This document shows positions 4,932 through 30,678 of a stretch of DNA of 64,000 nucleotides, one piece after another. Origin of the DNA: an uncultured bacterium (GTDB lineage: Bacteria > Joyebacterota > Joyebacteria > Joyebacterales > Joyebacteraceae); assembly GCA_964562405.1 (NCBI GenBank), contig CAZLTC010000001.1:252-64251 (forward strand), in the 5' to 3' direction. The position numbers were made by a program, and so were the translations under genes. Below the pieces are notes generated by a model. The model did no database searches. It was given only the letters and a program-made list of their open reading frames with translations, and was not told the origin of the DNA. The first letter of the stretch is position 1, and the number at the start of each line of letters is the position of its first letter.

Positions 4932-4986
4932 AGCGGCGCCTTTGGGCGCTCCGAACCGCTTCCTTCGAACACCGCGGAGGCATCCC

Positions 4987-8048: not shown

Positions 8049-8117
8049 CGGTCACAGGCGGCTCGGTCCGAGGATCGTTCCGCGGGTGGGTCGGTGACAC
8101 GCCGATCGGATGGGCAA

Positions 8118-13408: not shown

Positions 13409-13651
13409 GCGCCGGGGGCGGCCGGCCAAGGGCTCGCGGCGACCATCGGTCGCCGTGGCGGCAGGTCGAGGGGCGGTTCGTACGGCGGCCGAAGTCGGTC
13501 GGCGTTCAACCACCGGTCAGGCGGGGCGGTCAAAACATACTGCAGGACTCACCGAACATCGGTCGGACTTTCACTGAATGGACTGGGCGCGAATCCCCGT
13601 GAGCCGCGCGTGGGAGCGGAGGGGACGTTGCGCCACACCAAGGGGGGAGCG

Positions 13652-16996: not shown

Positions 16997-17279
16997 CAGA
17001 GAGCCGCGTGCCGCCCGCGCCCTACCGAGGCGTCGGTTGCTGAGGCGAGGCGACAACAAGCGCTCGACGCACGACGTACGCGCCGGATCCCACGAGTCCG
17101 GCACCCCCTGGCGCCCGCGCGGCTTGACAGCCCGCGGGCGCCGGTCCATCGATACCTTCCTCGCCCTCGGGCTGTTGCCGCGACCCCCCTCTTCCTGCTA
17201 AGCTTACGAGGCTGCGAGAGTTTCGCTCCCGCGGAGCCTTGGTGTTCCGGCCACGCCACGTCACAGAAGGAGCCAGCTG

Positions 17280-18035
17280 ATGGCAGTTGATCTCGAGAAG
17301 TTGCTGAGGCCGGTCGACAGGCCCATGCCCCCGTTCCCGCCCAAACACATGACACTGGCCAGCGGCGATGACATGGTCATCCGGCAGGTGGGCCGCGACG
17401 ACATTCCGAGGCTGCTGTCGTTCGTCGCTCCGCTCATGTATGTCGAGCGCGACTACTACGACTGCGTTGCCGCCCGGGTCTACTCTGAGCTTCTGGCCTA
17501 CTACCGCCACAGGGTACAGGATGAGTACGTGCTGGTCGCGCAGATAGGCGGCGAGCTGTGCGCCATCGTGAACGGGCGCATGGTCAACGAGAGGGTGGGG
17601 ATGTCGCTGCACACGCTAGCGCTCCGCAGGGGACTCAGGATCGGGGCGCACGCGTTCGCGACGAAGATGGAGTACCACATCGACATTCTCGGACAGGATG
17701 AGGTGCTGGTGGTGGCCGAGTCGCCCATCGGCTTTCGCAGGTGGATGATCGAGTATAACCTCGAGGAGCGTTTCGATGTTCCGCACGAGCTGGGCGGCGT
17801 CCCGTCGTACGCGCTCACGCGGGAGCTGTTCGATAGGGCCCGAGGCACGCTTGTGATCGGCAGGCGCCCGGTTCCTGAGGACCTCATGGCGAAGGCGATG
17901 GAGGACATCCTTCCGCCGTCCGATCCGCCCAGGCCTCCCGAGGATCTGATGGCGGCAACGCGCTCGAAGTACGACCCGACGGGAACGGCTCTCTTGCTCC
18001 AGAGGTGGGTGCAGGAAGAGAAGGTGAAGCAATGA
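17280..18035 (+). CDS. hypothetical protein, possibly GNAT-fold acyltransferase
   Basis: 251 aa with an AAGGAG RBS. An R-x-x-G-x-G/A-like motif (LRRGLRIGAHA) suggests a GNAT fold. First gene of a 10-gene overlapping operon. Confidence 0.5.
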   Translation: MAVDLEKLLRPVDRPMPPFPPKHMTLASGDDMVIRQVGRDDIPRLLSFVAPLMYVERDYYDCVAARVYSELLAYYRHRVQDEYVLVAQIGGELCAIVNGRMVNERVGMSLHTLALRRGLRIGAHAFATKMEYHIDILGQDEVLVVAESPIGFRRWMIEYNLEERFDVPHELGGVPSYALTRELFDRARGTLVIGRRPVPEDLMAKAMEDILPPSDPPRPPEDLMAATRSKYDPTGTALLLQRWVQEEKVKQ

Positions 18036-19204
18036 GAGACGTATACGTCGCCGGCATCGGCATAACCTCGTTCACGAGGCTCGAATACCCGCTCTCGGAG
18101 ATTGCGGCCTACCCGGTCATGATGGCCATCAAGGACTCCGGCCTGCGGAACATAGACCACCTGTACGTGGCTAACATGGGGAGCGGCAGGGTCAATCACC
18201 AGACGGGGCTTGCGAGCGCGGTCGTCGACACGCTGAGTCTCACCCCATCGGGTGCGGAGCTCATCGAGAACGGTCCCGCCTCAGGCGGCTCGGCGGTGAA
18301 GCAGGGCTTCATGGCCGTCGCATCAGGAATGCATGACGTCGTCGCGGTGACCGGCGCCGAGCGCATGCGTGAGGTCAACAACCTCGAGGCCACTGACTTC
18401 GTGGCCACGCTCACGCACCCGATAGCCGAGTACATCTACGGAGTCACTCTCCCGTCGCTCGCGGCCATGTTCACGCGCATGTACATGGACAAGTACGGCG
18501 TTACCGGACGGCACCTCGCGATGGTTTCGGTCAAGAACCAGCGCCACGCGCTCCGCAACAAGTTCGCGCACATCCAGCAGGAGATCAGCGTCGAGGGTAT
18601 CCTCGACTCGCCGGAGGCCATGACGAACAACCCGTACGTCTCCGATCCACTGCGGTTCTTCGACTGCTGCCCCGTCTCTGACGGGGGCGCGGCGGTCATA
18701 CTCACCACCCGGGAGGTGGCGGAGGCGACGGGCAGGCCTCTAGTGCGGCTCGCGGGAGTCGGGCAGGCGACCGACACCCACTGCGTGCACGAGCGGGAGG
18801 ACCCGACCGACCTGCTGGCCGTCAGGCGTGCCGCGGCCGGCGCGATGAAGATGGCCGGAGTGAAGCCGTCCGACGTCGACGTGGCCGAACTTCACGACGC
18901 GTTCACGATCCTCGAGATCGTCGAGAGCGAGGAAGCGGGCTTCTTCCCGAAGGGCGAGGGGCATCTCGCGCTGGAACGAGGCGAGACCGAGCTTGGCGGG
19001 AAGCTGCCGATCAACGTGTCCGGAGGCCTCAAGGGCCGTGGGCATCCGGTCGGTGCGACCGGTGTCGCGCAGGTCTACGAGATCGTGCACCAGCTGCGGG
19101 GCGAAGCGGAGGACCGCCAGGTCGAGGGCGCGCGCGTCGGGTTCACCTGCAACTTCGGAGGGTTCGGCAACAACGTCGTCTGCATGGTGCTGAAGAAGGA
19201 GTAG
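18032..19204 (+). CDS. thiolase-like protein (SCP-x / nonspecific lipid-transfer thiolase type)
   Basis: Thiolase fold with N-terminal VYVAGIGITSF and C-terminal GHPVGATG...NFGGFG. ATGA overlap with the upstream gene. Confidence 0.8.
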   Translation: MRDVYVAGIGITSFTRLEYPLSEIAAYPVMMAIKDSGLRNIDHLYVANMGSGRVNHQTGLASAVVDTLSLTPSGAELIENGPASGGSAVKQGFMAVASGMHDVVAVTGAERMREVNNLEATDFVATLTHPIAEYIYGVTLPSLAAMFTRMYMDKYGVTGRHLAMVSVKNQRHALRNKFAHIQQEISVEGILDSPEAMTNNPYVSDPLRFFDCCPVSDGGAAVILTTREVAEATGRPLVRLAGVGQATDTHCVHEREDPTDLLAVRRAAAGAMKMAGVKPSDVDVAELHDAFTILEIVESEEAGFFPKGEGHLALERGETELGGKLPINVSGGLKGRGHPVGATGVAQVYEIVHQLRGEAEDRQVEGARVGFTCNFGGFGNNVVCMVLKKE

Positions 19205-19287
19205 GGCGTCGCCGGCGCCGGACGGGAGCGGTCCGGGCGCCATCCCCGGCCCGCGTGGCCGGCGCGATTCCACCAGGAGATGTGGAC

Positions 19288-19635
19288 ATGAGCAGAGAGA
19301 TCTACGCATACAGGTGCAAGAGATGTGGCGAACTGCACTATCCGTACAGGATGGTCTGCAAGAAGTGCCACGAGAACGACCACAACGAGTTCGATCCGGA
19401 GCCACTTCCGAAGACCGGGACGCTCGTCACGTTCACGGAGCTGTACTCGCTGCCGGCCGTCTTCGAGGTGCGCAAGCTGGGGTTGGGCATCGTCGAACTC
19501 TCCAACGGCATACGCATCACGGGACAGCTGCGCATAGACGAGCCGAAGGCCGGGATGAAGGTGCGGGGCGAGGTTGAGGTCGTCAGGAGCGAGACCTACG
19601 AGGACTTCCACGGCATGGTCTTCTACGAGGCGTGA
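19288..19635 (+). CDS. DUF35 zinc-ribbon / OB-fold protein (thiolase partner)
   Basis: CxxC...CxxC rubredoxin-like ribbon (CKRCGELHYPYRMVCKKC), then an OB-fold. Typical partner of SCP-x-type thiolases. Confidence 0.75.
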   Translation: MSREIYAYRCKRCGELHYPYRMVCKKCHENDHNEFDPEPLPKTGTLVTFTELYSLPAVFEVRKLGLGIVELSNGIRITGQLRIDEPKAGMKVRGEVEVVRSETYEDFHGMVFYEA

Positions 19636-19642
19636 GGGGCAA

Positions 19643-20590
19643 TTGGCGGAGCACGAGCGTGCCATCCGACTGCTGAGACGCGGCGATCTCGTCGCGGATG
19701 GAACCTACCGTGTCCACTCGCGCTTCAGGCGAGCGGTCAACCTCAGTGACGGGCGCAGAGTGCTCTCGGTCGTCGCGGCGGGCGTAGACGCCGGGCCCGC
19801 GACCCTGGTCGTGGATCGCCTCCACGCAGGCTCGCCCGAGACCGTCCACGTCGCCGGCTCGTCGGTTACGATCGACGGCCTCCCTGTCGCTACCACGGAT
19901 GCCGCGTCCTACGATTCCACCTTCTATGTCAGAGCGGCCGACGCTCGTGTCGTTCGCCGCAATCTGAGTGTCCTCTCTTTGCTCATCGCCGAGCGCGCGC
20001 CGGTCGAGAGCCTGGCCTTCCTGCTCAATCCCGGGAGGGTCGAGCTTCTACGTCCGGGCTTCGAGCGCACCTACGCGCGCCACATGAGCCACTGCGCACG
20101 CGACATCTTTCACGGCGACATGCTGCGCGGAGTCGAGCGGGCCAGGGGCTGCGGCTTCGGGCTCACTCCGTCCGGTGACGACCTGATGGTCGGCATCCTG
20201 GTAGCGATGCGGTTTCTGGAGCAGACCGGCGGACGAGACCTCTCCGAGGTGAGGGCCGACGTCGAGCGCACGGCACGCACCGGCAGCCTGCTGGGTGATT
20301 CGTTCCTGGCGTTCGCCGCCCGCGGAAGGGTCTGCGAGAGCATGAGGTCGCTCGTGACCGCACTCGCCCTCGGCTCGTCGGGAGACGTGGCGTCCGCGTT
20401 CGACAGGATCTCCAGCGTCGGGGCGACGTCGGGTGTGGATGCCGCCTCCGGGCTCTGCCTGGGCGTCGGCGCGGGTGCCAACGGCTGGCCTCGCACCGGC
20501 CGCGCATCATTCGGTCGGGCCGCCGCGGGCGCCGAACCGGTTCCAGGCGATGTTCGCGCGCCGGGAGAGGGGAGTATCCTGTGGTCCTAG
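19643..20590 (+). CDS. DUF2877 protein (YlbF/AllH-like)
   Basis: ~316 aa from an in-frame TTG at 19643; the track ORF opens at 19574. Lies adjacent to FdrA and DUF1116 genes, as in the E. coli fdrA-ylbE-ylbF cluster. Confidence 0.55.
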   Translation: MAEHERAIRLLRRGDLVADGTYRVHSRFRRAVNLSDGRRVLSVVAAGVDAGPATLVVDRLHAGSPETVHVAGSSVTIDGLPVATTDAASYDSTFYVRAADARVVRRNLSVLSLLIAERAPVESLAFLLNPGRVELLRPGFERTYARHMSHCARDIFHGDMLRGVERARGCGFGLTPSGDDLMVGILVAMRFLEQTGGRDLSEVRADVERTARTGSLLGDSFLAFAARGRVCESMRSLVTALALGSSGDVASAFDRISSVGATSGVDAASGLCLGVGAGANGWPRTGRASFGRAAAGAEPVPGDVRAPGEGSILWS

Positions 20591-22116
20591 AGTGCAGGAT
20601 CAGGAAAGGCGCGTACTTCGACTCGGTCACCCTCATGAACGTCGGGCGCGAGCTGTCCGTCATGGACGGCGTCGACGACGCGGCGATCGTCATGGGCACC
20701 GATGAGAACAAGAACATACTTCGCGCCTCCCGCCTGCTGACCCCGAAGCTCGAAAGCGCCGTCGGCAGCGATCTCCTGATCGCGGTCCGGGCGTCGGACG
20801 CGGCCTCGGCAGCGGCCGCGCTCGCGGCGGTCGACGCGCTCCTGACGCGCGACAGAAGCGCGGTCGGGGACTCGTCGGCACGCGAGCCGCGCAGCCTCGG
20901 CGGCGCGCTCGACGTCGTTCCGGAGGCGAACCTCGCGCTCATATCGGTCGCGGGACGCTATGCCGGCGCCGTGGCCGATGAGGCGCTCGACCGCGGTCTT
21001 CACGTCATGCTCTTCTCGGACAACGTGGCGCTGGAGACGGAGGTCGCCCTCAAGAGGAAGGCCCACGAGAAGGGCCTTCTCGTGATGGGACCCGACTGCG
21101 GCACGGCCATCGTGAACGGCGCGCCGCTCGGGTTCGCCAACGCCGTGTCCCGCGGCCCGGTGGGCATAGTTGCCGCATCCGGCACGGGTCTCCAGGAGGT
21201 CAGCTGCCTGCTCTCAAACGACGGAGTGGGCATTTCGCAGGCGCTCGGGACGGGCAGCAGGGACGTGAACGATGCCGTGGGCGGCGTCACGTTCCAGGAC
21301 GCGCTGCGCGCGCTCGGTGACGACCCGGAGACGGAGGTCATCGTGCTCGTATCCAAGCCACCCGACCCGGGTGTCCATGCGGCCGTGCGCGAGGCGGCTG
21401 CGAAGCTCGGCAAGCCGGTCGTGTCCGTGTTCCTCGGGGCGGAGCCGACCGGTGCGATGGACGCCTGGACGCTGGCCGGGGCGGCCGTCAAGGCGGCGGC
21501 TGTCGTTAGAGGCGAGCCCGTCGAGGACACGCTCGCGTTCGGTCCTATGGACGACGCGCTTCGCGAGTTTGCCGACGACATCGCCTCGGCCAGGAGTGCG
21601 GGGCAGAGGTATCTGAGAGCGCTCATGAGCGGCGGCACGTTCGCTTCCGAGGCCGTGCTGCTACTGGGGCGGATCGGGGTGCCTGACGTGCACGCGAATG
21701 TCTCCGGCAAGCGCGCCGCGAGACTGAGTGACCCGCTCGCGAGCATCGCGAACACGGTCGTCGACATGGGCGCCGACGAGTTCACGGTCGGCCGCCCGCA
21801 CCCCATGATCGACTATTCGCTGAGGCGCAAGCGGCTTGCCGCGGAGTCGAAGGATCCCGAGGTGGCGGTCGTGCTGCTCGACGTGGTTCTGGGCTACGGC
21901 GCCAACCCGGATCCGGCCTCCGAGCTGGAAAACGCGGTCAGGGATGCTTCGTCGCGCGTCGCCGTCGTCTGCTCGATAACGGGAACCGAGCGCGACCCGC
22001 AGGTCCGGAGCGTCGTCGAGAGGCGACTGAGGCGGGCCGGTGCGGTCGTAATGCCTTCCAACGAGGCGGCATGCAGGCTCGCGGGCGAGACCGTACGCAC
22101 GCTGGGAGAACGCTGA
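20581..22116 (+). CDS. FdrA-family protein (succinyl-CoA-synthetase-alpha-like CoA-binding / ligase-CoA domains; AllF-like)
   Basis: N-terminus MVLECRIRKGAYFDSVTLM parallels E. coli FdrA (MIHAFIKKGCFQDSVSLM). GTG start overlapping the upstream gene. Confidence 0.75.
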   Translation: MVLECRIRKGAYFDSVTLMNVGRELSVMDGVDDAAIVMGTDENKNILRASRLLTPKLESAVGSDLLIAVRASDAASAAAALAAVDALLTRDRSAVGDSSAREPRSLGGALDVVPEANLALISVAGRYAGAVADEALDRGLHVMLFSDNVALETEVALKRKAHEKGLLVMGPDCGTAIVNGAPLGFANAVSRGPVGIVAASGTGLQEVSCLLSNDGVGISQALGTGSRDVNDAVGGVTFQDALRALGDDPETEVIVLVSKPPDPGVHAAVREAAAKLGKPVVSVFLGAEPTGAMDAWTLAGAAVKAAAVVRGEPVEDTLAFGPMDDALREFADDIASARSAGQRYLRALMSGGTFASEAVLLLGRIGVPDVHANVSGKRAARLSDPLASIANTVVDMGADEFTVGRPHPMIDYSLRRKRLAAESKDPEVAVVLLDVVLGYGANPDPASELENAVRDASSRVAVVCSITGTERDPQVRSVVERRLRRAGAVVMPSNEAACRLAGETVRTLGER

Positions 22117-23519
22117 TGTCGGCAGGTGAGCTGTTCAGGACGGAACTCAAGGTCGTGAACGTGGGCCTCCGGTCGTTCAGGGATAGCCTCGATTCGGCGG
22201 GCACGGTCGCCGTGCAGGTGGACTGGCAGCCGCCGATGGACGTCTCCGCCGAGTCGATGCGCGTGCTGGCCGGGCGCTCTTCCGTCATCGACGAGGCGAA
22301 CGCGAGGGCGGTCGACATGCTGCTGCGCGCGGCACCGGCCCTCGTGGGGATGGGGACGGCGTTCGACGCCATACCGGGCATGCGCCGCGACCTCTTCCTG
22401 CACGCCGGCCCTCCGGTCACATGGGAGCGTATGTGCGGACCCATGCGCGGCGCGGTCATGGGGGGTATCATCTACGAGGGGCTTGCCGACACTCCGGAAG
22501 CCGCGGAGGAACTGGCAGCGTCCGGTGCGATAGAATTCGAGCCGTGCCACGAGCACAGCGCCGTCGGTCCGATGGCGGGCATCGTGACGCCGTCGATGCC
22601 GGTCTTCGTGATACGGAACACGGAGTTCGGGAACGAGGCCTTCTGCACCATGAACGAGGGGCTCGGGAAGGTCCTGCGCTACGGCGCGTTCGCGCCCGAG
22701 GTCATCGAGCGACTGAACTGGATGCGCGACGTCCTCTACCCGGTCCTCCACCGCGCGATCGCGACCGCCGGTCCCATCGACCTGAAGAACCTGATCGCGC
22801 AGGCGCTCCACATGGGTGACGAGGTCCACAACCGGAACCGCGCGGCGACGTCGCTCCTCTACCGGGCGCTCGCGCCCGCTATCGTCTCGACGTGCGACGA
22901 TCGCGCGGCCGCCGCGCGGGTGCTCGGCTTCATCAACGGGAACGACCACTTCTTCCTCAACCTGTCGATGCCGGCCTGCAAGGCATCGCTCGACCCGGCA
23001 CGCGGCATCGAGGGCTCGAGCCTCGTCGTCGCGATGACGAGGAACGGGACCGACTTCGGCGTGCAGCTCTCCGGCACCGGCGACGAGTGGTTCACGGGTC
23101 CCGCCGACGTGCCGGACGCGCTCTTCTTCCCGGGATATACGAGGGAGGACGCCAACCCGGACATCGGTGACAGCTCGATCACCGAGACCGCGGGACTCGG
23201 AGGGTTCGCGATCGCGGCATCGCCCGCCATCGTCCAGTTCGTCGGCGGGACGACGTCAGACGCCATCAACTACACGCTCGAGATGTACGAGATCACGACG
23301 GCCGAGAACGACGCGTACCAGGTGCCGTACCTCGACTTCCGGGGGACTCCGACGGGCATCGACGTGGTGAAGGTCGTGACGAAGAACATACTGCCGTTCA
23401 TAGACACGGGCGTGGCGCACCGGGACCCCGGCGTGGGGCAGGTCGGGGCGGGAGTGCTCCGGGCCTCGGCGCAGCCGTTCCTCAGGGCATTCGAGGGGCT
23501 CGCCGCCAGACTGGGGTGA
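22116..23519 (+). CDS. DUF1116 protein (YlbE/AllG-like)
   Basis: 468 aa. ATGA overlap with the fdrA-like stop. Family is invariably paired with FdrA. Confidence 0.65.
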   Translation: MSAGELFRTELKVVNVGLRSFRDSLDSAGTVAVQVDWQPPMDVSAESMRVLAGRSSVIDEANARAVDMLLRAAPALVGMGTAFDAIPGMRRDLFLHAGPPVTWERMCGPMRGAVMGGIIYEGLADTPEAAEELAASGAIEFEPCHEHSAVGPMAGIVTPSMPVFVIRNTEFGNEAFCTMNEGLGKVLRYGAFAPEVIERLNWMRDVLYPVLHRAIATAGPIDLKNLIAQALHMGDEVHNRNRAATSLLYRALAPAIVSTCDDRAAAARVLGFINGNDHFFLNLSMPACKASLDPARGIEGSSLVVAMTRNGTDFGVQLSGTGDEWFTGPADVPDALFFPGYTREDANPDIGDSSITETAGLGGFAIAASPAIVQFVGGTTSDAINYTLEMYEITTAENDAYQVPYLDFRGTPTGIDVVKVVTKNILPFIDTGVAHRDPGVGQVGAGVLRASAQPFLRAFEGLAARLG

Positions 23520-23544
23520 GAGCCGGACGATCAGGAGGTGGCAC

Positions 23545-24363
23545 TTGAACATCGACAAGTTCCTGGCATTCATGAACGATGTAAAGCTCTACGACTTGAC
23601 ACAGCGGCTCTCGATACACACGCCGCCCTGGCCCAGCTACATGCCGATGGGGCTCCAGTACTTCAAGCGCATCGCCGGCGCGCACATGGGGCAGGGTGCC
23701 AACGGGCAGATCATGACGACCTCCAACCACGTCGGCACGCACATGGACGGGGAGATCCACTTCCATGCGAGCGGACGCGCCATCGGCCAGGTCCCGCTCG
23801 AGGAGTGGGTCGGCCCGGGCGTCGTGGTCGACATCTCGGACGCCGTGGAGGACTACGGCCTCTACTCGCCGGCCATGATCGAGGAGCGCGTCGCCGTCAA
23901 GCCGGGCGACATTCTCATAATCAACACGGGCTACCACAAGTACGCGTGGGACCAGAAGGGCTCGGATGAGATGCGCTACTTCGTGAAGCACCCGGGTCCG
24001 GACCCCGACTTCCACAAGTGGGCGATCAAGATGAAGCTCAAGTGGATCGGGGTGGACTGCGGAAGCGCCGACCACCCAATGAACACGATCATCCGCGACT
24101 GGCATCCCGGTCTGTTCGAGAAAGCGGAGGCAAAGCTCACGCGCGACTACGGCAAGGTATGGGACGAGATGTTCCCGCCCGAAACGTACTACCAGGTCAT
24201 GCACCTCAAGCTCTTCCCGAAGAAGATCGTCCACGCCGAGAACCTCGGTGGCGACATAGACAAGCTCGGGAGCAGGCGATGCTGGATCGGGTGCTTCCCG
24301 CTGCGAGGCATCGAGCTGGAATCGTCGATGTGCCGCATCGTGGCGATGCTGCCGCCGGAGTGA
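23545..24363 (+). CDS. cyclase-family hydrolase (kynurenine formamidase / isatin hydrolase type)
   Basis: Metal-binding signature HVGTHMDGEIHFH (HxGTHxDxxxH). AGGAGG RBS with a TTG start. Confidence 0.75.
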   Translation: MNIDKFLAFMNDVKLYDLTQRLSIHTPPWPSYMPMGLQYFKRIAGAHMGQGANGQIMTTSNHVGTHMDGEIHFHASGRAIGQVPLEEWVGPGVVVDISDAVEDYGLYSPAMIEERVAVKPGDILIINTGYHKYAWDQKGSDEMRYFVKHPGPDPDFHKWAIKMKLKWIGVDCGSADHPMNTIIRDWHPGLFEKAEAKLTRDYGKVWDEMFPPETYYQVMHLKLFPKKIVHAENLGGDIDKLGSRRCWIGCFPLRGIELESSMCRIVAMLPPE

Positions 24364-24372
24364 GGAGCCAGC

Positions 24373-25263
24373 ATGTCGATATCGCACGAGTTCGACTACG
24401 TACGACCTGACACGCTGGACGAGGCCGTAGCGGCGCTCGGCCGGGCAGGCGATGGAGCGGCCGTCCTCGCGGGAGGCACCGACCTCGTGGCGTGGCTCAG
24501 GGATGGAGTGGCGAGGCCGTCCCTGGTCGTAGACCTCAAGGGCGTTCCTGGGCTCGCCGAGATCGCGGTGTCTGGTGGCGTTCTGTCAGTGGGCTCGTTG
24601 GTGACGTTCGCCGACCTCATCGATTCGGCAGCCGTCGCGGACGCGCTTCCGGTGCTGTGCGAGATGGCGCGCGTGATGGGCTCGACGGGCATACGCAACC
24701 GCGCGACCGTCGCCGGGAACATCTGCTCCGGCGTCCCTTCGTGCGACAGCGGTCCCGTCCTGCTCGTGTGCGACGCCACGGTCAGCGTCGTGGGTCCGGG
24801 TGGAGCGCGCGACGTGCCCGTTTCCGACTGGTTCAAGGGACCGAAGAAGACGGCGCTCAAGGCCGGCGAGATCGTGACGCGCATCGCGATTCCGCTTCCC
24901 GAGAACGGACACGGAGCCTGCTATGTCAAGCTCAGGCGCAACCGCGGCGAGGATCTGGCGCAGGCCGGCGTAGCCGTCATGGCGCTGCCCGATCGGAGCT
25001 ACCGTGTCGCCTTCGGAGCCGTCGCACCGACACCCGTGAGGGCGCCGCGCATCGAGGCGCTCCTCTCGGGGCGCGGGGTGGACGACGCCGTCATCGAAGA
25101 GGCAAAGATGCTCGTGTCCGAGGAGACCGCGCCGATCTGCGACATCAGAGCGAGTCGAGAATACCGGGAGCACATGCTGCCGGTGATGCTCGAGCGGGCG
25201 CTGCGCGCGGCCGCGTCGCGTCTCGCGGGAGCCGGCCCCGTGTACGGGGAGCCGCTCATCTAG
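24373..25263 (+). CDS. xanthine-dehydrogenase-family FAD-binding subunit (CoxM/XdhB-like)
   Basis: FAD_binding_5 N-terminus (AVLAGGTDLVAWLRDG) and CO-dehydrogenase-flavoprotein C-terminal domain. Confidence 0.85.
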   Translation: MSISHEFDYVRPDTLDEAVAALGRAGDGAAVLAGGTDLVAWLRDGVARPSLVVDLKGVPGLAEIAVSGGVLSVGSLVTFADLIDSAAVADALPVLCEMARVMGSTGIRNRATVAGNICSGVPSCDSGPVLLVCDATVSVVGPGGARDVPVSDWFKGPKKTALKAGEIVTRIAIPLPENGHGACYVKLRRNRGEDLAQAGVAVMALPDRSYRVAFGAVAPTPVRAPRIEALLSGRGVDDAVIEEAKMLVSEETAPICDIRASREYREHMLPVMLERALRAAASRLAGAGPVYGEPLI

Positions 25264-25350
25264 ACGGACCGGAAGGGTCGGCGCGTCTCGCGCCGAGGGC
25301 GTCAATCTCTCGCCGTGCCGGCATCACATGCTCTGTCAGGGAGCACTCGA

Positions 25351-25830
25351 ATGACTCGACAGATCACGCTCAACGTCAACGGCGAGGAGTGGACCATCTC
25401 CGTCGCCCCGAACGAGACGCTCCTCGAGGCGCTGCGCGACCGCATAGGCATCAAGAGCCCGAAGATCGGGTGCGAGCGAGGCGACTGCGGAAGCTGCACG
25501 GTCATCCTGGACGGGAAGACCGTGAGGTCGTGTCTCGTTCTCGCCGTCGAGGCCGACGGTCGCGGCGTCCTGACCGTGGAGGGGCTCTCGAAGGACGGGC
25601 TCACCGACCTCCAGAAGGCGTTCATCGACGGCAACTCGTTCCAGTGCGGGTTCTGCGCGCCGGGCGTCATCCTGACCGCCTCGGAGCTCCTGGCGAAGAA
25701 CCCCGAGCCGACCGAGCTGGAGGTCAGGGAGGCGCTCTCCGGGAACCTCTGTCGCTGCACCGGCTATACGCCGATCATCGACGCGGTCCTCGCGGTGGGC
25801 AAGCGGGGAGGAGGACGGAGCGATGGCTGA
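25351..25830 (+). CDS. xanthine-dehydrogenase-family (2Fe-2S)-binding small subunit (CoxS-like)
   Basis: Plant-type and second 2Fe-2S motifs (GCERGDCGSCTVILDG, CGFCAPG, CRCTGY). Confidence 0.9.
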   Translation: MTRQITLNVNGEEWTISVAPNETLLEALRDRIGIKSPKIGCERGDCGSCTVILDGKTVRSCLVLAVEADGRGVLTVEGLSKDGLTDLQKAFIDGNSFQCGFCAPGVILTASELLAKNPEPTELEVREALSGNLCRCTGYTPIIDAVLAVGKRGGGRSDG

Positions 25831-28201
25831 ACGCAAGCACGTGAGCGCGTCCGCTTCTGGTCTCAAGTACGTTGGCTCCTCCGCCACGCGCATCGACGGA
25901 CTGCCCAAGGTCTCGGGCAGCGCCACGTTCGTCGACGACATCGACTTCGGACCGGGCCTGCTTCACGCGGTCATCGTGGAGAGCCCACACGCCCACGCGA
26001 GCATCGTCTCCATCGATAAGTCGGCCGCCGAGGCCGTGCCCGGTGTCGTCCGCGTCGTGACGGGAGAGGACTTCCCATACAGGTTCGGCCTCTACATGAA
26101 GGACCGGCACATCTTCGCGATGGACAGGGTCAGGTTCGTCGGAGAGCAGGTGGCCGCCGTCATCGCGCGCGACCTCAAGACGGCGCAGCGGGCCGCCGAA
26201 CTCGTGCGCGTGGAGTACGAGGAGCTGCCGGCGCTGTTCGATCCGATGGAAGCTGTAGCCGAGGGGTCGTGCCTCCTGCATCCGGACATGTGCGACTGCG
26301 AGCGCGTCCCGTGGTTCTTCCCCGAGCCCGACACGAACGTCGCGCACTGCAGGCGCACGCGGAAGGGCGACGTCCAGGGGGGCTTCGAGGAGGCCGACAT
26401 CGTACTCGAGGACACTTACACGGTGCCGCGCTATGCGCACTGCGCCATAGAGCCGCACGTGGTAGTGGGGCTTCACGACCACTCGGGACGACTCACGCTC
26501 TGGTCGGCGTCGCAGTCACCACACACGCAGCGCAACCTCTTCGCCGAGACGCTCGCGCCGCTCGGGCTCACGCACAAGGACATCAGGGTGGTGACGCCCT
26601 ATGTCGGAGGCGGGTTCGGAGGGAAGGCCGGCGTCACGATGGAGATCATAGGCGCCGCGCTCGCCACCGCGGTCAAGGGTCGGCCGGTCAAGCTGCGCTG
26701 GACGCGCGAGCAGGAGTTCTACAATACCTACCAGCGCCAGGCTGTCGTGGCGAAGCTCAAGATCGGGGCGAAGAAGGACGGTACCCTCACGGCCATCGAG
26801 CACACGCTCTACTGGGACGCCGGGGCCTACGTCGAGTACGGCGCGAACGTGGTGAACGCCGTCGGCCTCTCTGCCACAGGACCGTACCGCATCCCGAACG
26901 TGAAGATCGACTCGTACTGCATCTACACGAACCTGCCGCCCGGCGGGCCGTATCGCGGGTTCGGTTACTCGGAGTTCCACTTCGGGCTCGAGTCGCACAT
27001 GACCCGGCTTGCTCAGGAGCTGGGGCTTGACCCGGTCGAGTTTCGCAAGAGGAACGCGATTCGCGAAGGCGACACGCTTGCCTACGGCGCGAAGATGAAC
27101 CCGAGTGGGCTCCTGGAGGCCATCGACAGGGCGGCGGCCGCCATCGGCTGGGGCGAGAGCACCGAGCCGTCGGGACCGGGCAAGCTCGTCGGCAAGGGTT
27201 TCTCGCTCATGTGGAAGGCGCCGGCCATGCCACCGAACGCGGCCTCGGCCGCGTTCCTCAAGTTCAGCGAGGACGGGAGCATCAACATCACCGTCTCGGG
27301 CATGGAGATCGGGCAGGGCTATCTCACGGCGATGGCTCAGATTGCCGCGGAGGTTCTGTCCGTTCCCACGGAGAAGATCCGCGTCGAGACGCCCGACACC
27401 GACCGCAACCCGTACGAGTGGCAGACCGTGGGGTCGCACGTGACGTGGGGGTGCGGCAACGCCGTGAAGGATGCGGCGATCGAGGCGCGCGAGAGGATCT
27501 TCGACGTCGTGAACAGGGGCAAGGGTCTTCCCGTCGACGCGCTCTACCTCGAGGATGAGAGGGTGAAGAGCCGTCTGGACCCCGACTTCGAGCTTCCGCT
27601 TCGCGACTTCGTCATCTACGGCATCCAGATGGCGGACGGCACCTTCCGCGGCGGCCCCATCATGGGAAGCGGGATGTTCATGCCGGAGTTCACGTCGGCC
27701 CTGTCCGACCCGGCGACGAGCCAGGGCGGACACCCGAACGTGCACTACACCGTCGGGGCGGCTGGCGTCGTGCTCGAGATCGACCGCCAGACCGGCAAGA
27801 TGGACGTCCTCAGGACGGCGCTCGCCGTCGACGTCGGCAAGGCCATAAACCCCGACCTCGTGGAGGGACAGATAACGGGTGGGCTCCTGCAGGGTCTCGC
27901 AACGGTGCTCTACGAGGACATGCGGTTCGACGAGAAGGGGAGGATGCTGAACCCCAACTTCACCGACTACAAGATACCCACCACGATGGACACCCCGAGG
28001 GAGACGATACCCATCATCGTCGAGGTCCCGCAGCCCGACGGCCCGTTCGGCGCGCGCGGCGTGGGGGAGCACACGATGATCCCCGCTGCACCCATGGTCG
28101 CCAACGCGGTCGCGGACGCTACGGGCATACGCCTCAAGTCGATGCCCATCACCGCGGAGAAGGTCGCCCTGGCGATCGCTGAACGCGAGCGGAATCGATA
28201 G
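25823..28201 (+). CDS. xanthine-dehydrogenase-family molybdopterin-binding large subunit
   Basis: 792 aa with Ald_Xan_dh_C/C2 domains and typical blocks (GGGFGGK, GQGxxT, GEHTMIPAAP). Confidence 0.9.
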   Translation: MAERKHVSASASGLKYVGSSATRIDGLPKVSGSATFVDDIDFGPGLLHAVIVESPHAHASIVSIDKSAAEAVPGVVRVVTGEDFPYRFGLYMKDRHIFAMDRVRFVGEQVAAVIARDLKTAQRAAELVRVEYEELPALFDPMEAVAEGSCLLHPDMCDCERVPWFFPEPDTNVAHCRRTRKGDVQGGFEEADIVLEDTYTVPRYAHCAIEPHVVVGLHDHSGRLTLWSASQSPHTQRNLFAETLAPLGLTHKDIRVVTPYVGGGFGGKAGVTMEIIGAALATAVKGRPVKLRWTREQEFYNTYQRQAVVAKLKIGAKKDGTLTAIEHTLYWDAGAYVEYGANVVNAVGLSATGPYRIPNVKIDSYCIYTNLPPGGPYRGFGYSEFHFGLESHMTRLAQELGLDPVEFRKRNAIREGDTLAYGAKMNPSGLLEAIDRAAAAIGWGESTEPSGPGKLVGKGFSLMWKAPAMPPNAASAAFLKFSEDGSINITVSGMEIGQGYLTAMAQIAAEVLSVPTEKIRVETPDTDRNPYEWQTVGSHVTWGCGNAVKDAAIEARERIFDVVNRGKGLPVDALYLEDERVKSRLDPDFELPLRDFVIYGIQMADGTFRGGPIMGSGMFMPEFTSALSDPATSQGGHPNVHYTVGAAGVVLEIDRQTGKMDVLRTALAVDVGKAINPDLVEGQITGGLLQGLATVLYEDMRFDEKGRMLNPNFTDYKIPTTMDTPRETIPIIVEVPQPDGPFGARGVGEHTMIPAAPMVANAVADATGIRLKSMPITAEKVALAIAERERNR

Positions 28202-28212
28202 CGCCGCGCTGC

Positions 28213-30678
28213 CTATCTCACAAGCACCATCTTCCGCGTCTTGACGCCGCTCGCGGTCTCCAGCCTCAGGAAGTAAACGCCGGAACCGACATCCTCGCCG
28301 CGGTCGTCGGTGCCGCGCCACGTGAGCGAGTGCGGTCCTTCCTCGCGCGGTCCGTCCACGAGCACGCGCACGAGCCTCCCCGCCGCGTCGTAGACGGCCA
28401 GTCTCACGTCCGATGGCTCGGGCAGCGAGAACGAGATGGTCGCCGCCGGGTTGAACGGATTCGGGCGGACGGGCTCGAGCCTCACGGCATCGACGGTCTC
28501 ACTCGAGTCGATGTCGCTCGCGGTGTAGTTGAGAGCCCACAGCTCGACGTCGTCGATGTTCCAGCCGCAGTATCTCCACCCACCGTCGGTCTCGCCCATC
28601 GTCCACCGCACGTAGACGGAGCCCTCGTTGTCGGCTATGTCGGAGATGTCGTAGCTGACCTGGGTCCACGCGCCGTCCGAGACGGTGTCGGTGTTCTCCC
28701 ACACGGTCACCCAGTTCGCTCCGTCCGTGCTCACTCGCACGTACGCGTGGTCGTAGTTCGCGTCCTCGACGCCCAGCCAGCGCCAGAAGATCAAGCGCAC
28801 GCCGGCGAGGCCGGTGCAGTCGATTGCGCCTGTTGTCAGGTGAGTCTCGGAAAGCCAGTTCGGATAGTCGCCGGACAGGTTGTAACCGTAGACGTTCGCG
28901 CCAGTGTGCCCGCTCGTCGGGTCGGGCGCCCCGTTCTCGCCTCCACCGCCCGTCGGCTGCCCGTAGGCCCACTGCCCCCCGGTCGTCCAGCCGGGGTCGG
29001 ACGCCATCGTCCACTCGCGCCGGAGCGTCCTCTCGCCGACGAAGAGCTTGAACGTGCGCGTGGCGTCGCCGAGATGGTGCGAGAGGTCGGTGAATTGCAG
29101 CGTCGCCTCATACGCGCCTTCCGCAAGAAGCTCCGCAGCGGCGTTAGGGGTTGCGACGACCTCTCCCGTGACACCGCCGGGCAGTGTGCCACCCGTGTCG
29201 CCCGAGAGCGTCAGCCACGTGCACGATGCATCAAGAGTGACCTCGTAGTCGGTCGCTCCTCCTTCGTAGGTGAACTCGAAGCTCGCCCCGGCGGGCGAGA
29301 AGGGGCCGCCTACCGGTCCTTCCGAGCCCGCGGCTCCGTCGGGCTCCACGCGGAGGCCGGCGTTGTTTGTGAGCGCCTTGATGCAGAAGTTGGCGGTCGG
29401 ATCGAATGTCGTGAGGTCGACCCATCCGCCGCCGTCCCGGTAGTAGCTCTCGCCCGGGCTCGCGGACGACTCGACGATCGTGCGGTAGCTTGCGCCGAGG
29501 AGCACCGGCACGTCGGACGTCGCGTCGTAGGGCTGACCGCCGCGCGAGAGACTAACGTAGACGTAGAAGTCGTCGCCCTCGGTCACGATCACGGGCGCGT
29601 CGAGGTCGACCGTGTGAAACCCACGGAACTCGAAGCTCCCGCTCTGCGTGGTCAGCTGGTCCACGAGCGCGCCACCCTCGAACCCGCCGTAGACGGCGAT
29701 CGTGTAGTCGACGCTGTCGGCGGCCGTGAAGAAGCTGACGGCGTTCACGAACTCGCCCGACTGTGAGACGAACGCGTTCATGGCCTCCTCCACGTCAGTC
29801 ATCGTCTCACGCCACCCGTGGTAGTCGTGGTAGTAGACGTGGTCGTAGCGCATCGGCTCGACGTCAACGAACGACACCGCTCCCATGAACGGCTCCTGAC
29901 CGCACCACTTGTCATAGTAGGAGATCCAGAAGTAGCCACTCTCGCCCCAGCTCGCGCCCCAGCTGTTCTTGATGAGCCACGCGCCGGGGTGTGGAGCCGG
30001 CGTGATCTTGGCGTCGTCCCATCCGACTATCGCGACGGCATGGTTGGGCGGCGTCGAACTCGTCGGCGGCTGGTAGTGGATGTAGTTGCTGATGAACTGA
30101 CTCTCGTAGTCGAGGCAGGTCCCCACGACGCCTTGCGTCATCACCGCTTCCTTGATGGTGTCGATGTTCGAGAGGTCGGGCCCAGCGACGTGCCACTCGA
30201 CGTGCCTGGGGTAGTAGTAGTGCCAACCCTGGCCTGACCTTTCCGGAGGGTTCGTATAGGACTGGCCGTCGACGTCGCGAACGGCGCCCTCGCCCCTCGA
30301 GAGATAGGCCGTGGCGACGAGGTAGTCGCCGCCCTGGTGCACGACGAGTCCCGAGCCCGCGGGCGGCTCGATGTCGTCGTTGTTGTGTTCGTTGAAGCCG
30401 TTCCACCAGTCCAGATGGTACTCGGCGAGGTTGGGTTCCCCGGACTCACCGTTCGCTTCCCAGGCGCCCGTCATGAGCAGGTTGCCCTCGATCGACGCCA
30501 TCGTGCCGTGCGTCCAGCAGGTGCCTCCGGTCTGCGACTTGACCGAGGTTACATAGTCCTCTCCACCGACGTCGCGCAGGTCGAACGAACTCGGGAGCTG
30601 GCAGGTCGCGAGTGACGGGGACAGGCCGAGGGCCGCCACGGCGGCAAGCGCCGACAGCGCTCGGGTGGCAGAGGGCAT
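28213..30678 (-). CDS. secreted papain-like (C1 family) cysteine peptidase with central beta-rich domains and a Por/T9SS-type C-terminal sorting domain
   Basis: Signal peptide. Active-site blocks QTGGTCWTHG (Gln/Cys), NHAVAIVGWDD (His) and NSWGASWGESGYFWISY (Asn/Trp). The C-terminal ~90 aa (NPFNPAATISFSLP...GVYFLRLE...) matches the Por_Secre_tail pattern. Confidence 0.8.
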   Translation of the reverse strand: MPSATRALSALAAVAALGLSPSLATCQLPSSFDLRDVGGEDYVTSVKSQTGGTCWTHGTMASIEGNLLMTGAWEANGESGEPNLAEYHLDWWNGFNEHNNDDIEPPAGSGLVVHQGGDYLVATAYLSRGEGAVRDVDGQSYTNPPERSGQGWHYYYPRHVEWHVAGPDLSNIDTIKEAVMTQGVVGTCLDYESQFISNYIHYQPPTSSTPPNHAVAIVGWDDAKITPAPHPGAWLIKNSWGASWGESGYFWISYYDKWCGQEPFMGAVSFVDVEPMRYDHVYYHDYHGWRETMTDVEEAMNAFVSQSGEFVNAVSFFTAADSVDYTIAVYGGFEGGALVDQLTTQSGSFEFRGFHTVDLDAPVIVTEGDDFYVYVSLSRGGQPYDATSDVPVLLGASYRTIVESSASPGESYYRDGGGWVDLTTFDPTANFCIKALTNNAGLRVEPDGAAGSEGPVGGPFSPAGASFEFTYEGGATDYEVTLDASCTWLTLSGDTGGTLPGGVTGEVVATPNAAAELLAEGAYEATLQFTDLSHHLGDATRTFKLFVGERTLRREWTMASDPGWTTGGQWAYGQPTGGGGENGAPDPTSGHTGANVYGYNLSGDYPNWLSETHLTTGAIDCTGLAGVRLIFWRWLGVEDANYDHAYVRVSTDGANWVTVWENTDTVSDGAWTQVSYDISDIADNEGSVYVRWTMGETDGGWRYCGWNIDDVELWALNYTASDIDSSETVDAVRLEPVRPNPFNPAATISFSLPEPSDVRLAVYDAAGRLVRVLVDGPREEGPHSLTWRGTDDRGEDVGSGVYFLRLETASGVKTRKMVLVR

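Follow-up and report, generated by a model that had tools for sequence, protein, structure and literature searches.

A ten-gene operon at 17280-28201 of the window (the whole 64,000-nucleotide stretch of DNA analysed, from an uncultured Joyebacterota bacterium) probably encodes an oxidative breakdown of uracil, and probably also of thymine, that proceeds via barbiturate and conserves the energy of the ring bonds. The first-pass annotation had described a general scheme of hydroxylation, ring opening, transcarbamoylation and CoA chemistry, which agrees with our comparison of related clusters. It had left the substrate as unknown, however, and the related clusters point to uracil/thymine, because a barbiturase orthologue replaces the cyclase gene in some of them, genes resembling uracil permease, cytosine deaminase and nucleoside-binding proteins are linked to others, and an acyl-CoA decarboxylase and a carbamate kinase occur in variants. 

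In the proposed pathway, the products of g8-g10 would oxidise uracil at C6 to barbiturate, and g7 would open the barbiturate ring to give ureidomalonate (N-carbamoyl-malonamate). This N-acylurea would react with phosphate on g4-g6 to yield carbamoyl phosphate and malonamate, as oxalurate yields carbamoyl phosphate and oxamate, and ATP could then be gained from the carbamoyl phosphate by a carbamate kinase whose gene lies elsewhere in the genome. The GNAT-fold acyltransferase g1, working in the N-to-S direction, would take the malonyl group off its nitrogen and pass it to CoA, and g2/g3 would decarboxylate malonyl-CoA to acetyl-CoA and CO2, pulling the g1 step. The substrates and reactions of all steps are predictions, those of g1 and g2/g3 being the most tentative.

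All ten genes lie on the plus strand. They had been described as co-directional and overlapping or nearly touching, and both the positions and the quoted junctions were correct: g1/g2 overlap by 4 nt (ATGA), g4/g5 by 10 nt, g5/g6 by 1 nt and g9/g10 by 8 nt, and the remaining gaps within the operon are 9-83 nt. The reported 283-bp gap upstream of g1 was confirmed at 16997-17279 (plus strand), where it separates g1 from a tricorn-protease gene and presumably holds the promoter/regulatory region. This leader had no Rfam match and no sigma-70-like promoter match, and its terminator-like hairpin at 17220-17237 was within chance expectation. Scanning for consensus promoters and terminators inside the operon gave nothing above chance, which fits a single transcription unit without proving it. 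The downstream neighbour of g10 is a convergent gene on the minus strand (28213-30678). The earlier family calls hold for all ten genes by Pfam or NCBIfam profiles, or by fold for g1, although PF13280, which had also been listed, matched nowhere in the operon.

The operon is conserved in many phyla of uncultured bacteria. Relatives of g1 were found in at least 559 species-representative genomes. Among the 80 best loci, the complete set was present in 30, which spread over many phyla (16 with the gene order of the window and 14 with a second complete order), and another 27 were interrupted by contig ends. On one contig of 4.29 Mb, the set was rearranged as two convergent operons. The co-location, which the first-pass annotation had named as a check, thus extends to many other genomes, and the gene set is more than a chance neighbourhood, since the same set recurs in 30 complete loci of many phyla. 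No cultured carrier of this cluster was identified. Counting against the pyrimidine reading, about nine loci with ample flank hold only part of the set, and some GNAT-like relatives stand alone in unrelated contexts.

The last three genes appear to encode a three-subunit molybdenum hydroxylase, comprising the FAD subunit g8 (24373-25263; Pfam FAD_binding_5 and CO_deh_flav_C), the 2x[2Fe-2S] subunit g9 (25315-25830; Fer2 and Fer2_2) and the molybdopterin subunit g10 (25823-28201; Ald_Xan_dh_C and MoCoBD_1/2). The hydroxylase catalytic Glu is retained in g10 (GVGEH), which scores below all NCBIfam equivalog cutoffs, and we propose it as the uracil/thymine dehydrogenase (C6 hydroxylase).

The ring-opening amidohydrolase would be g7 (23545-24363), a cyclase-family metal hydrolase (Pfam Cyclase PF04199, 119.5 bits) whose motif HVGTHMDGEIH fits HxGTHxDxxxH. 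It matched kynurenine formamidase structures with 44 bits only, a distant relationship to the characterised members of the family. We propose that g7 is a non-homologous barbiturase; against this, we know of no barbiturase in the cyclase family. The proposal derives from the Actinomycetota clusters, in which the cyclase gene is missing and an AtzD-family gene adjoins AllH-AllF-AllG, the two genes being mutually exclusive across related loci. The Actinomycetota AtzD-family protein scored 534 bits to PDB 5HWE ('Barbiturase') and at most 312 bits to cyanuric acid hydrolases. The barbiturate inference is transferred from orthologous clusters in other phyla, which counts against the pyrimidine reading. 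Orthologues in the window and in these barbiturase-bearing clusters share 64-79% identity for the Mo subunit (71-79% save one locus), 68-79% for the GNAT protein and 73-79% for the thiolase-like protein. An NCS2 permease gene lies immediately downstream in nine Actinomycetota barbiturase-type loci, with uracil permease as its top NCBIfam match (345 bits versus 228 for xanthine permease). A cytosine-deaminase-like gene adjoins the archaeal version of the cluster, and the Coprothermobacterota version contains a Bmp nucleoside-binding ABC system. In the cultured actinomycete Embleya, the genes beside a barbiturase homologue encode a CoA-transferase of family III and a carboxyltransferase, which shows the same downstream logic (malonate to malonyl-CoA to acetyl-CoA). 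The window itself holds no barbiturase, nucleobase transporter, regulator or carbamate kinase, which counts against the pyrimidine reading.

The three genes g4-g6 resemble AllFGH, which the first-pass annotation had correctly identified as the E. coli oxamate carbamoyltransferase (Kim & Kim 2024, PMC11326118). AllH/DUF2877-like g4 (19643-20590, with an uncertain start, TTG 19574 being likewise open) matched Pfam AllH with 77 bits and shares ~30% identity with E. coli YlbF across 132 aa. The succinyl-CoA-synthetase-alpha-like AllF/FdrA homologue g5 (20581-22116) exceeded the NCBIfam FdrA cutoff (455.6 bits, cutoff 433), with 38% identity to E. coli FdrA, and AllG/DUF1116-like g6 (22116-23519; Pfam AllG, 341 bits) is 45% identical to E. 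coli YlbE. As in E. coli, where the carbamate kinase AllK accompanies AllFGH (PMC11326118), the genes of the three subunits lie together, and the proposed chemistry is likewise a phosphorolytic cleavage of an N-acylurea into carbamoyl phosphate and an amide. However, identities are only 30-45%, the order is H-F-G instead of F-G-H, and the C-terminal tail of FdrA has been relocated to the N-terminus of AllG: the first ~50 aa of g6 correspond to that tail in E. coli, and positions 508-550 of the NCBIfam FdrA profile align there. Furthermore, the operon has neither an allantoin gene nor a carbamate kinase gene, and the proposed substrate, ureidomalonate, is one carbon longer than oxalurate. In the Halanaerobium cluster, a carbamate kinase gene (arcC, 434.6 bits, cutoff 358) sits between the cyclase genes and those of the Mo hydroxylase, but such a gene was nearby in only one of the first 88 related loci examined, which counts against the pyrimidine reading.

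The remaining module starts with g1 (17280-18035), a GNAT-fold protein of an unnamed family that matched no Pfam model, proposed as an acyl(N)-to-CoA transferase forming malonyl-CoA from malonamate or ureidomalonate. It is translationally coupled to the thiolase-fold protein g2 (18032-19204; Pfam Thiolase_N and Thiolase_C_1) and the DUF35 protein g3 (19255-19635; zf-ChsH2 and OB_ChsH2_C), an arrangement that recalls the channelled archaeal acetoacetyl-CoA thiolase/HMG-CoA synthase/DUF35 complex (PDB 6ESQ/6ET9). Other thiolase-DUF35 pairs are BbsAB, PhlABC and Ltp2-ChsH2. The true start of g3 is probably ATG 19288, its orthologues having 112-115 aa, and the four Zn-ribbon Cys (CxxC...CxxC) are present. 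Archaeal acetoacetyl-CoA thiolases (7YVY and 6ESQ, 273 and 214 bits) are the top PDB matches of g2, which differs from them at the active site. Every real thiolase has a nucleophilic Cys, and SCP2-type thiolases have an acid/base Cys; in g2, Pro occupies the first position (ENGPASG versus xxCASG) and Ala the second (HDAF versus HDCF), both invariant in 78 of 78 sequences. Both oxyanion-hole His are retained in all 78, and Cys373, at the CxG-like position, in 74. Because Pro occupies the Cys position, g2, judging from these residues, cannot form an acyl-enzyme, and the thiolytic cleavage suggested earlier is unlikely; neither thiolysis nor an acyl-enzyme Claisen condensation would therefore be expected. 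The third partner is also a GNAT-fold protein here and not an HMG-CoA synthase.

The residue pattern of g2 is that of the thiolase-superfamily members that decarboxylate, such as KSQ/chain-length-factor domains, which have lost the active-site Cys and kept the enolate-stabilising residues, and we propose g2 as a malonyl-CoA decarboxylase subunit. Unlike those domains, g2 falls into the SCP2/archaeal branch of the thiolases, carries Pro and not Gln at the Cys position and would need its DUF35 partner; we know of no described decarboxylase of this type. The clusters of Halanaerobium, Coprothermobacterota and Nitrososphaerota retain the g1 relative and lack the thiolase-like/DUF35 pair, and beside the g1 relative lie genes for a biotin-dependent Na+-translocating acyl-CoA decarboxylase of the (methyl)malonyl-CoA type (mmdA-like carboxyltransferase, 739 bits; OAD_gamma; biotinyl carrier; OAD_beta, 492 bits, cutoff 190.6). 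These enzymes, akin to Na+-translocating methylmalonyl-CoA decarboxylase, fill the equivalent place in the variants, which points to a malonyl-CoA intermediate in the predicted pathway. However, conversion of malonamate, a primary amide, to a thioester is uphill by an estimated 20 kJ/mol or so, which counts against the pyrimidine reading and would leave little free energy for Na+ pumping by the variant decarboxylases. The true GNAT substrate could therefore be ureidomalonate or another compound.

The similarity of g10 to 4-hydroxybenzoyl-CoA reductase (4-HBCR) alpha, which is its top PDB match (351 bits; next 276) and also leads its NCBIfam matches, raises an alternative that we consider improbable, namely that a carboxylated heteroaromatic compound is broken down in the form of a CoA thioester, in the manner of the furoyl-CoA and 4-hydroxybenzoyl-CoA pathways. 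The Mo enzyme would then hydroxylate a heteroaryl-CoA, FdrA/AllG/AllH would be an ADP-forming CoA ligase, and processing of the CoA esters would fall to the GNAT and thiolase-like proteins. The nearest solved relative of the Mo subunit indeed uses a CoA thioester, which counts against the pyrimidine reading, g5 carries CoA_binding and Ligase_CoA domains, and GNAT-fold and thiolase-fold proteins bind CoA as a rule. However, a barbiturase orthologue, whose substrate is free barbiturate, stands in for the cyclase in orthologous clusters, and the Halanaerobium carbamate kinase implies a carbamoyl phosphate product. The extra Fe-S insertion of 4-HBCR beta also appears to be absent from g8, which has 296 aa and matched the 4-HBCR beta profile in two pieces only, and the E. 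coli homologue of g4-g6 is a phosphorolytic carbamoyltransferase and not a CoA ligase (PMC11326118).

A purine/allantoin branch, with a xanthine dehydrogenase and an oxamate carbamoyltransferase acting on oxalurate, is more improbable still. The NCBIfam XdhA/B/C profiles scored strongly, albeit each below its cutoff, and anaerobic degradation of allantoin is known to involve AllFGH; however, no uricase, allantoinase, allantoate amidohydrolase or ureidoglycolate dehydrogenase was found in the window flanks, the locus gene tables or the recurrent neighbours. The linked transporter is nearer to uracil permease than to xanthine permease, and a barbiturase and a biotin-dependent beta-carboxy-acyl-CoA decarboxylase would make no sense for C2 oxamate. 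Some probability, if a small one, attaches to a different ureide or azine ring (for example an s-triazine that yields cyanuric acid, a pyrimidine with a 5-substituent or a carboxyl group, or a compound of the hydantoin type) handled by the same logic with different chemistry. The specificities of g7 and g10 are not readable from sequence, the AtzD family includes cyanuric acid hydrolases, and the Actinomycetota protein scored 465 bits with the NCBIfam equivalog profile for AtzD, above its cutoff of 360; AllFGH genes have also been observed next to triuret/biuret genes in nitrifier MAGs (PMC12625717). However, that protein is far nearer to barbiturase than to the solved cyanuric acid hydrolases, a triazine has no carbon chain for the malonyl-type C3 acyl-CoA decarboxylase linked in variant clusters, and the neighbours resemble uracil permease and cytosine deaminase.

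Breakdown of uracil via barbiturate is known from Rhodococcus, Nocardia and Mycobacterium, where an oxidative route leads from uracil through barbiturate and ureidomalonate to urea and malonate (Hayaishi and Kornberg 1952; Soong et al. 2002). The proposed pathway shares its first two intermediates, formed by C6 hydroxylation (dehydrogenase) and hydrolytic opening of barbiturate, and the Actinomycetota versions of the cluster contain a true barbiturase homologue. In the window, a cyclase-family hydrolase is found instead of barbiturase, an AllFGH-like phosphorolytic carbamoyltransferase takes the place of a ureidomalonase-type amidase, and the GNAT-like/thiolase-like/DUF35 module, or the biotin-dependent decarboxylase in variants, is added. 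The earlier statement that no described pathway combines these modules stands insofar as literature searches found no published description, but the pathway would be a novel version of a known oxidative one. It may allow the cell to regain ATP and acetyl-CoA from the pyrimidine ring. Uracil/thymine dehydrogenase, which oxidises uracil at C6 to barbiturate, is known as a biochemical activity, and to our knowledge its gene has never been assigned; the cluster offers a candidate gene for this enzyme.

Ten ORFs lie on the + strand at 17280-28201 and encode a GNAT-fold protein (g1), a thiolase-fold protein (g2), a DUF35 protein (g3), an AllH/DUF2877 protein (g4), FdrA/AllF (g5), AllG/DUF1116 (g6), a cyclase-family hydrolase (g7), and the FAD, 2Fe-2S and MoCo subunits of a hydroxylase (g8 to g10). 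Our re-reading of the ORFs reproduced the layout and junctions of the first-pass annotation, and Pfam and NCBIfam confirmed nine of its ten family calls (g2 to g10). The g1/g2 junction is an ATGA overlap (18032/18035), g4/g5 overlap by 10 nt, g5/g6 by 1 nt (22116) and g9/g10 by 8 nt, and the other intergenic gaps within the operon are 9 to 83 nt. A tricorn-protease homologue (13610-16996) lies upstream, followed by a 283-bp gap, and a secreted papain-like protease (28213-30678) is convergent and directly downstream; both flanking genes are functionally unrelated to the operon. The G+C content of the window is ~66%. The Rfam scan gave no match, and the promoter/terminator scan gave nothing exceeding chance. 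The operon flanks contain no allantoin genes (allB/C/D/E), the window contains no carbamate kinase gene and no transporter or regulator for the operon, and the cluster contains no amidase-type gene. Protease-related genes are abundant around the operon (13610-16996, 28213-30678, 37052-39580 and 40484-41770). The papain-family enzyme among them has a lectin-like domain and a C-terminal sorting domain of the FlgD-Ig/Por type, and the same neighbourhood encodes a bacterial serpin and an S9 peptidase. The window also encodes the selenocysteine-specific elongation factor SelB (4942-6888), and the organism therefore makes selenoproteins.

Close homologues of g1 (2229 proteins, 75 to 100% identical) occur across phyla and are nearly all unnamed. 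The family is compact, since g1 matches only 176 of 1.8 billion cluster representatives; no match was found in the plasmid collection. A scan with one genome per species showed that at least 559 genomes encode a g1 relative, and the ten window proteins were mapped onto the best 80 of these loci. The complete window order (type I) was found in 16 of the 80, from Eisenbacteria, Verrucomicrobiota, Ignavibacteria, Bacteroidota, Acidobacteriota and Lentisphaerota, and a second complete order (type II) in 14, from Actinomycetota/Acidimicrobiia. Another 27 were truncated by contig ends yet fitted type I or II, 14 were too short for judgement, and ~9 had a partial set within the available flank. The thiolase-like gene immediately follows g1 in 87 of 87 loci, and on a 4.29-Mb contig the set is divided between two convergent operons but still together. 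The gene set is thus a conserved unit, and the finding is real and widespread. Clustering of neighbouring ORFs revealed no universally linked regulator or transporter. A full-text search, whose coverage leaves out many subscription-journal papers, found no description of the cluster; an earlier description elsewhere is possible.

Several related loci differ in their surroundings. In the closest long-contig relatives, L002 (5722-9787) and L003 (803-2316), an Rrf2-family regulator and a PBP_like_2/BPD_transp_1 ABC system of the phosphate or oxyanion type are divergent from g1; these genes, absent from the window, could be related to phosphate or molybdate supply. Six loci from Verrucomicrobiota, Kiritimatiellae and Riflebacteria genomes (L017, L019, L027, L030, L032 and L078) carry GNAT-thiolase-like-DUF35, with or without AllH, amid unrelated neighbours. 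This module can therefore exist apart from the genes for the hydroxylase and AllFG; those genes may be located at another site in the same genomes.

The ring hydrolase differs between the two complete orders. In type I it is g7, which matched Pfam Cyclase (PF04199) with 119.5 bits (cutoff 23.1) and has the metal-binding motif HxGTHxDxxxH as HVGTHMDGEIH. Its score against the NCBIfam arylformamidase equivalog was 51.8 bits, below the cutoff of 223, and no orthology to a characterised cyclase-family member was found, the best PDB hit being KynB (44 bits), with isatin hydrolase at 23 bits. Judged by sequence, g7 is only a distant relative of the characterised enzymes. The type II order is AtzD-family-AllH-AllF-AllG ... 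FAD-FeS-Mo-GNAT-thiolase-like-DUF35; the cyclase gene is absent and the AtzD-family gene stands beside AllHFG instead. No locus has both hydrolases, and the window has no AtzD-family barbiturase. PDB 5HWE, a structure deposited as 'Barbiturase', gave 534 bits with the type II AtzD-family protein, as opposed to at most 312 bits for solved cyanuric acid hydrolases. The other type II proteins are closely orthologous to those of the window, with identities of 64 to 79% for the Mo subunit (71 to 79% bar one locus), 68 to 79% for GNAT and 73 to 79% for the thiolase-like protein. The single recurrent neighbour, found in Actinomycetota loci, is an NCS2 permease, which is the next gene in nine type II loci and matched the NCBIfam uracil permease best (345 bits; xanthine permease 228). 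The simplest reading of these comparisons is that barbiturate is the ring-hydrolase substrate in both types, in which case g7 would be a non-homologous replacement of barbiturase.

With the Actinomycetota barbiturase as query, all homologues recovered were near-identical MAG proteins. Cultured Nonomuraea and Embleya also have a barbiturase homologue, and were rejected as cluster carriers because the GNAT/AllFGH modules are absent. In L090, from Embleya sp. NBC_00888 (9988-15089 and 21039-27986), this homologue is 72% identical to the Acidimicrobiia one and adjoins genes for a carboxyltransferase and a family III CoA-transferase. At a distance of 6 to 13 kb are an NCS2 permease, a CN-hydrolase and a non-orthologous enzyme of the XDH family, with 29% identity to g10. 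L090 may be where a cultured actinomycete encodes the classical oxidative pyrimidine pathway, and its CoA-transferase/carboxyltransferase pairing follows the downstream logic proposed for the cluster. Cyclase genes are sometimes duplicated: in locus L026 the stretch from AllG to FAD contains two cyclase hits, and L097 has tandem genes (7330-8088 and 8387-9145) 58% and 53% identical to g7. The tandem duplication hints at two related substrates, e.g., uracil- and thymine-derived rings.

The hydroxylase subunits g8, g9 and g10 have the standard FAD, 2x[2Fe-2S] and MoCo domain sets in Pfam. In the alignment with HcrA, the Glu-containing segment is matched by GVGEH of g10, so that the catalytic Glu is kept; we take this residue to correspond to Glu1261 of bovine XDH. 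For the hydroxylase, all NCBIfam equivalogs scored below their cutoffs, including XdhA (503 bits, cutoff 780) and 4-HBCR alpha (519 bits, cutoff 995). Among solved proteins, the one nearest to the Mo subunit is 4-HBCR, which acts on a CoA ester.

The AllFGH-like module was recovered by Pfam AllH for g4 (77 bits), Pfam AllG for g6 (341 bits) and NCBIfam FdrA for g5 (455.6 bits, above the cutoff of 433). BLASTP identities to the E. coli K-12 proteins were 38% for g5 with FdrA, 45% for g6 with YlbE and ~30% for g4 with YlbF. These E. coli proteins form the oxamate carbamoyltransferase, which converts oxalurate and Pi to carbamoyl phosphate and oxamate (PMC11326118). As in that family, three co-encoded subunits are present; the association with allantoin genes and allK is absent. 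Carbamate kinase is nearby in only 1 of 88 related loci, and a bona fide carbamate kinase gene lies between the cyclase and Mo-hydroxylase genes of a variant Halanaerobium cluster. The genomic context suggests ureidomalonate, rather than oxalurate, as the substrate of g4 to g6. Ureidomalonate is the one-carbon-longer homologue of oxalurate, and an analogous reaction would therefore give carbamoyl phosphate and malonamate. A segment of ~50 residues forms the C-terminus of FdrA in E. coli (NCBIfam profile 508-550), the AllG N-terminus in the window (22116-22265), and a separate small ORF in L001 (18321-18512, 63 aa) and in L093, a Nitrososphaerota cluster (13517-13690, 57 aa). It looks like a mobile inter-subunit peptide of the AllFGH complex. 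L093 also encodes a ThiS-like small protein between AllF and AllH (15444-15737).

The thiolase-fold protein g2 matched Pfam Thiolase_N and Thiolase_C_1, with PDB 7YVY at 273 bits, and its partner g3 is a DUF35 protein in Pfam. Pro83 of g2, in the motif ENGPASG, aligns with the nucleophilic Cys of 7YVY, 6ESQ and 6HSJ, and this motif is invariant in 78 of 78 g2 sequences. All 78 also have HDAF at the position of HDCF in SCP2-type enzymes, which is not decisive alone because 7YVY has HDAF too. The oxyanion-hole histidines (of HDxF and GHP) are both present throughout, and Cys373, at a CxG-like position, is conserved in 74 of the 78; from motif similarity only, we infer that it is the counterpart of the acid/base Cys of classical thiolases. 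With the nucleophilic Cys missing, true thiolysis or retro-Claisen cleavage by g2 was rejected, and the protein is predicted to be unable to form an acyl-enzyme. The retained residues could stabilise and protonate a thioester enolate, as a malonyl-thioester decarboxylase requires. The nucleophilic Cys is likewise missing (NTSGSGG) from PDB 4YZO, which was deposited as 'putative acyl-CoA acyltransferase' and is the second-best structural relative of g2. Cys-less thiolase-fold proteins may be a wider, unexplored group.

The remaining protein, g1, has a GNAT fold. It matched no Pfam or NCBIfam GNAT model, a sequence search of the PDB gave nothing significant, and its beta4-alpha3 loop (RRGLRIGAH) is Arg/Gly-rich and deviates from the canonical CoA-binding motif Q/RxxGxG/A. 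A divergent subfamily of at least 1089 proteins, ~35 to 40% identical, retains the family-invariant motifs SxHT, AKxE, ES and HELGG, and occurs in variant clusters with a biotin-dependent decarboxylase. The Halanaerobium order is carboxyltransferase, OAD_gamma, a 137-aa gene, OAD_beta, GNAT-like, AllF, AllG, cyclase, cyclase, carbamate kinase, FAD, FeS, Mo; the 137-aa product has no Pfam hit and is a candidate biotin carrier by position. The GNAT-like gene of Coprothermobacterota precedes genes for an mmdA-like carboxyltransferase, OAD_gamma, a biotinyl carrier and a Na+-pump beta subunit; Mo-hydroxylase genes lie nearby, as does a Bmp nucleoside ABC transporter. The Nitrososphaerota locus contains cytosine-deaminase-like, GNAT-like, Mo-FAD-FeS and AllF-ThiS-AllH-AllG genes and a carboxyltransferase/OAD_beta system. 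None of these three loci has thiolase-like or DUF35 genes, and the pair and the decarboxylase are therefore alternatives accompanying the same GNAT-like protein. The product of the latter would thus be a beta-carboxy acyl-CoA, namely malonyl-CoA, or methylmalonyl-CoA from thymine, which g2/g3 would decarboxylate. Divergent GNAT-like members also occur alone, outside the cluster, in L096 (9001-9729) and L099 (10001-10726), beside flagellin/FliD/FliS genes or amid glycosyltransferase and radical-SAM genes, so the roles of the fold family extend beyond the pathway.

In the pathway we propose, g8 to g10 would oxidize uracil or thymine to (5-methyl)barbiturate, g7 would open barbiturate to ureidomalonate, g4 to g6 would convert ureidomalonate to carbamoyl phosphate and malonamate, g1 would convert malonamate to malonyl-CoA, and g2/g3 would release acetyl-CoA and CO2. 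The first three steps are proposed because of two independent substitutions, linked genes and homology, and the last two because of the decarboxylase substitution and the active-site pattern. We consider the pyrimidine/barbiturate assignment reasonably probable, while the detailed GNAT/decarboxylase mechanism is tentative. By our estimate, making a thioester from a primary amide is endergonic, so an acylurea, not malonamate, might be the GNAT substrate, and the order of the third and fourth steps is uncertain. The first-pass annotation had described an uncharacterised N-heterocycle/ureide catabolic operon with thiolytic cleavage. Its generic pathway logic was largely right, its thiolysis step is unsupported, with Pro replacing the nucleophilic Cys in every g2 sequence, and a probable substrate can now be named.

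A heteroaryl-CoA pathway would account for the similarity of the Mo subunit to 4-HBCR and for CoA-ligase-like domains, but is contradicted by the barbiturase, the carbamate kinase and the known AllFGH activity. Degradation of purines through oxalurate was rejected on gene content and on the presence of a C3 decarboxylase. A triazine or another ureide ring is possible in principle as the substrate, although it fits poorly with a hydrolase of the barbiturase clade and with a malonyl-type decarboxylase.

Of the systems known, the cluster comes closest to the oxidative pyrimidine pathway of Rhodococcus and its relatives, with which it would share its intermediates. In that route, known since the 1950s, uracil is first oxidized to barbiturate, and ureidomalonate is hydrolysed to urea and malonate. 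The cluster differs in its ring-opening protein, at least in the window, in the proposed cleavage of the ureide by phosphorolysis rather than hydrolysis, and in a proposed extra CoA-dependent C3 module. To our knowledge, complete gene assignments exist only for the reductive, Rut and URC routes, and no sequence or gene has been assigned to uracil/thymine dehydrogenase in ~70 years. The cluster probably contains at least two new enzyme functions. It offers candidate genes for uracil/thymine dehydrogenase, a candidate second barbiturase unrelated to the first, a candidate new substrate for the AllFGH carbamoyltransferases, a family discovered only recently, and a candidate function for the unnamed GNAT-like family and the Cys-less thiolase/DUF35 pairs.

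A bolder proposal, which we regard as somewhat improbable, is that g1 to g3 are a new enzyme system in which a 'backwards' GNAT takes the malonyl group off the N of an amide or acylurea and passes it to CoA without ATP, and decarboxylation by the Cys-less thiolase-fold/DUF35 pair makes the transfer favourable. Together with phosphorolysis, this would make the ring fermentable and would assign the uracil/thymine dehydrogenase genes. The pyrimidine ring would then be ATP-yielding, with 1 ATP (from carbamoyl phosphate) and 1 acetyl-CoA per uracil, and the route would be present in many uncultured anaerobic or microaerobic phyla and in archaea. The cluster is found in hundreds of species-level genomes, with hosts including Eisenbacteria, Verrucomicrobiota, Ignavibacteria, Bacteroidota, Acidobacteriota and Actinomycetota, and in variant form in Halanaerobium, Coprothermobacterota and Nitrososphaerota archaea. 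Pyrimidines are plentiful in necromass. If the energy-conserving logic is true, nucleobase turnover and nitrogen release would be modelled differently in sediments, bogs and wastewater systems.
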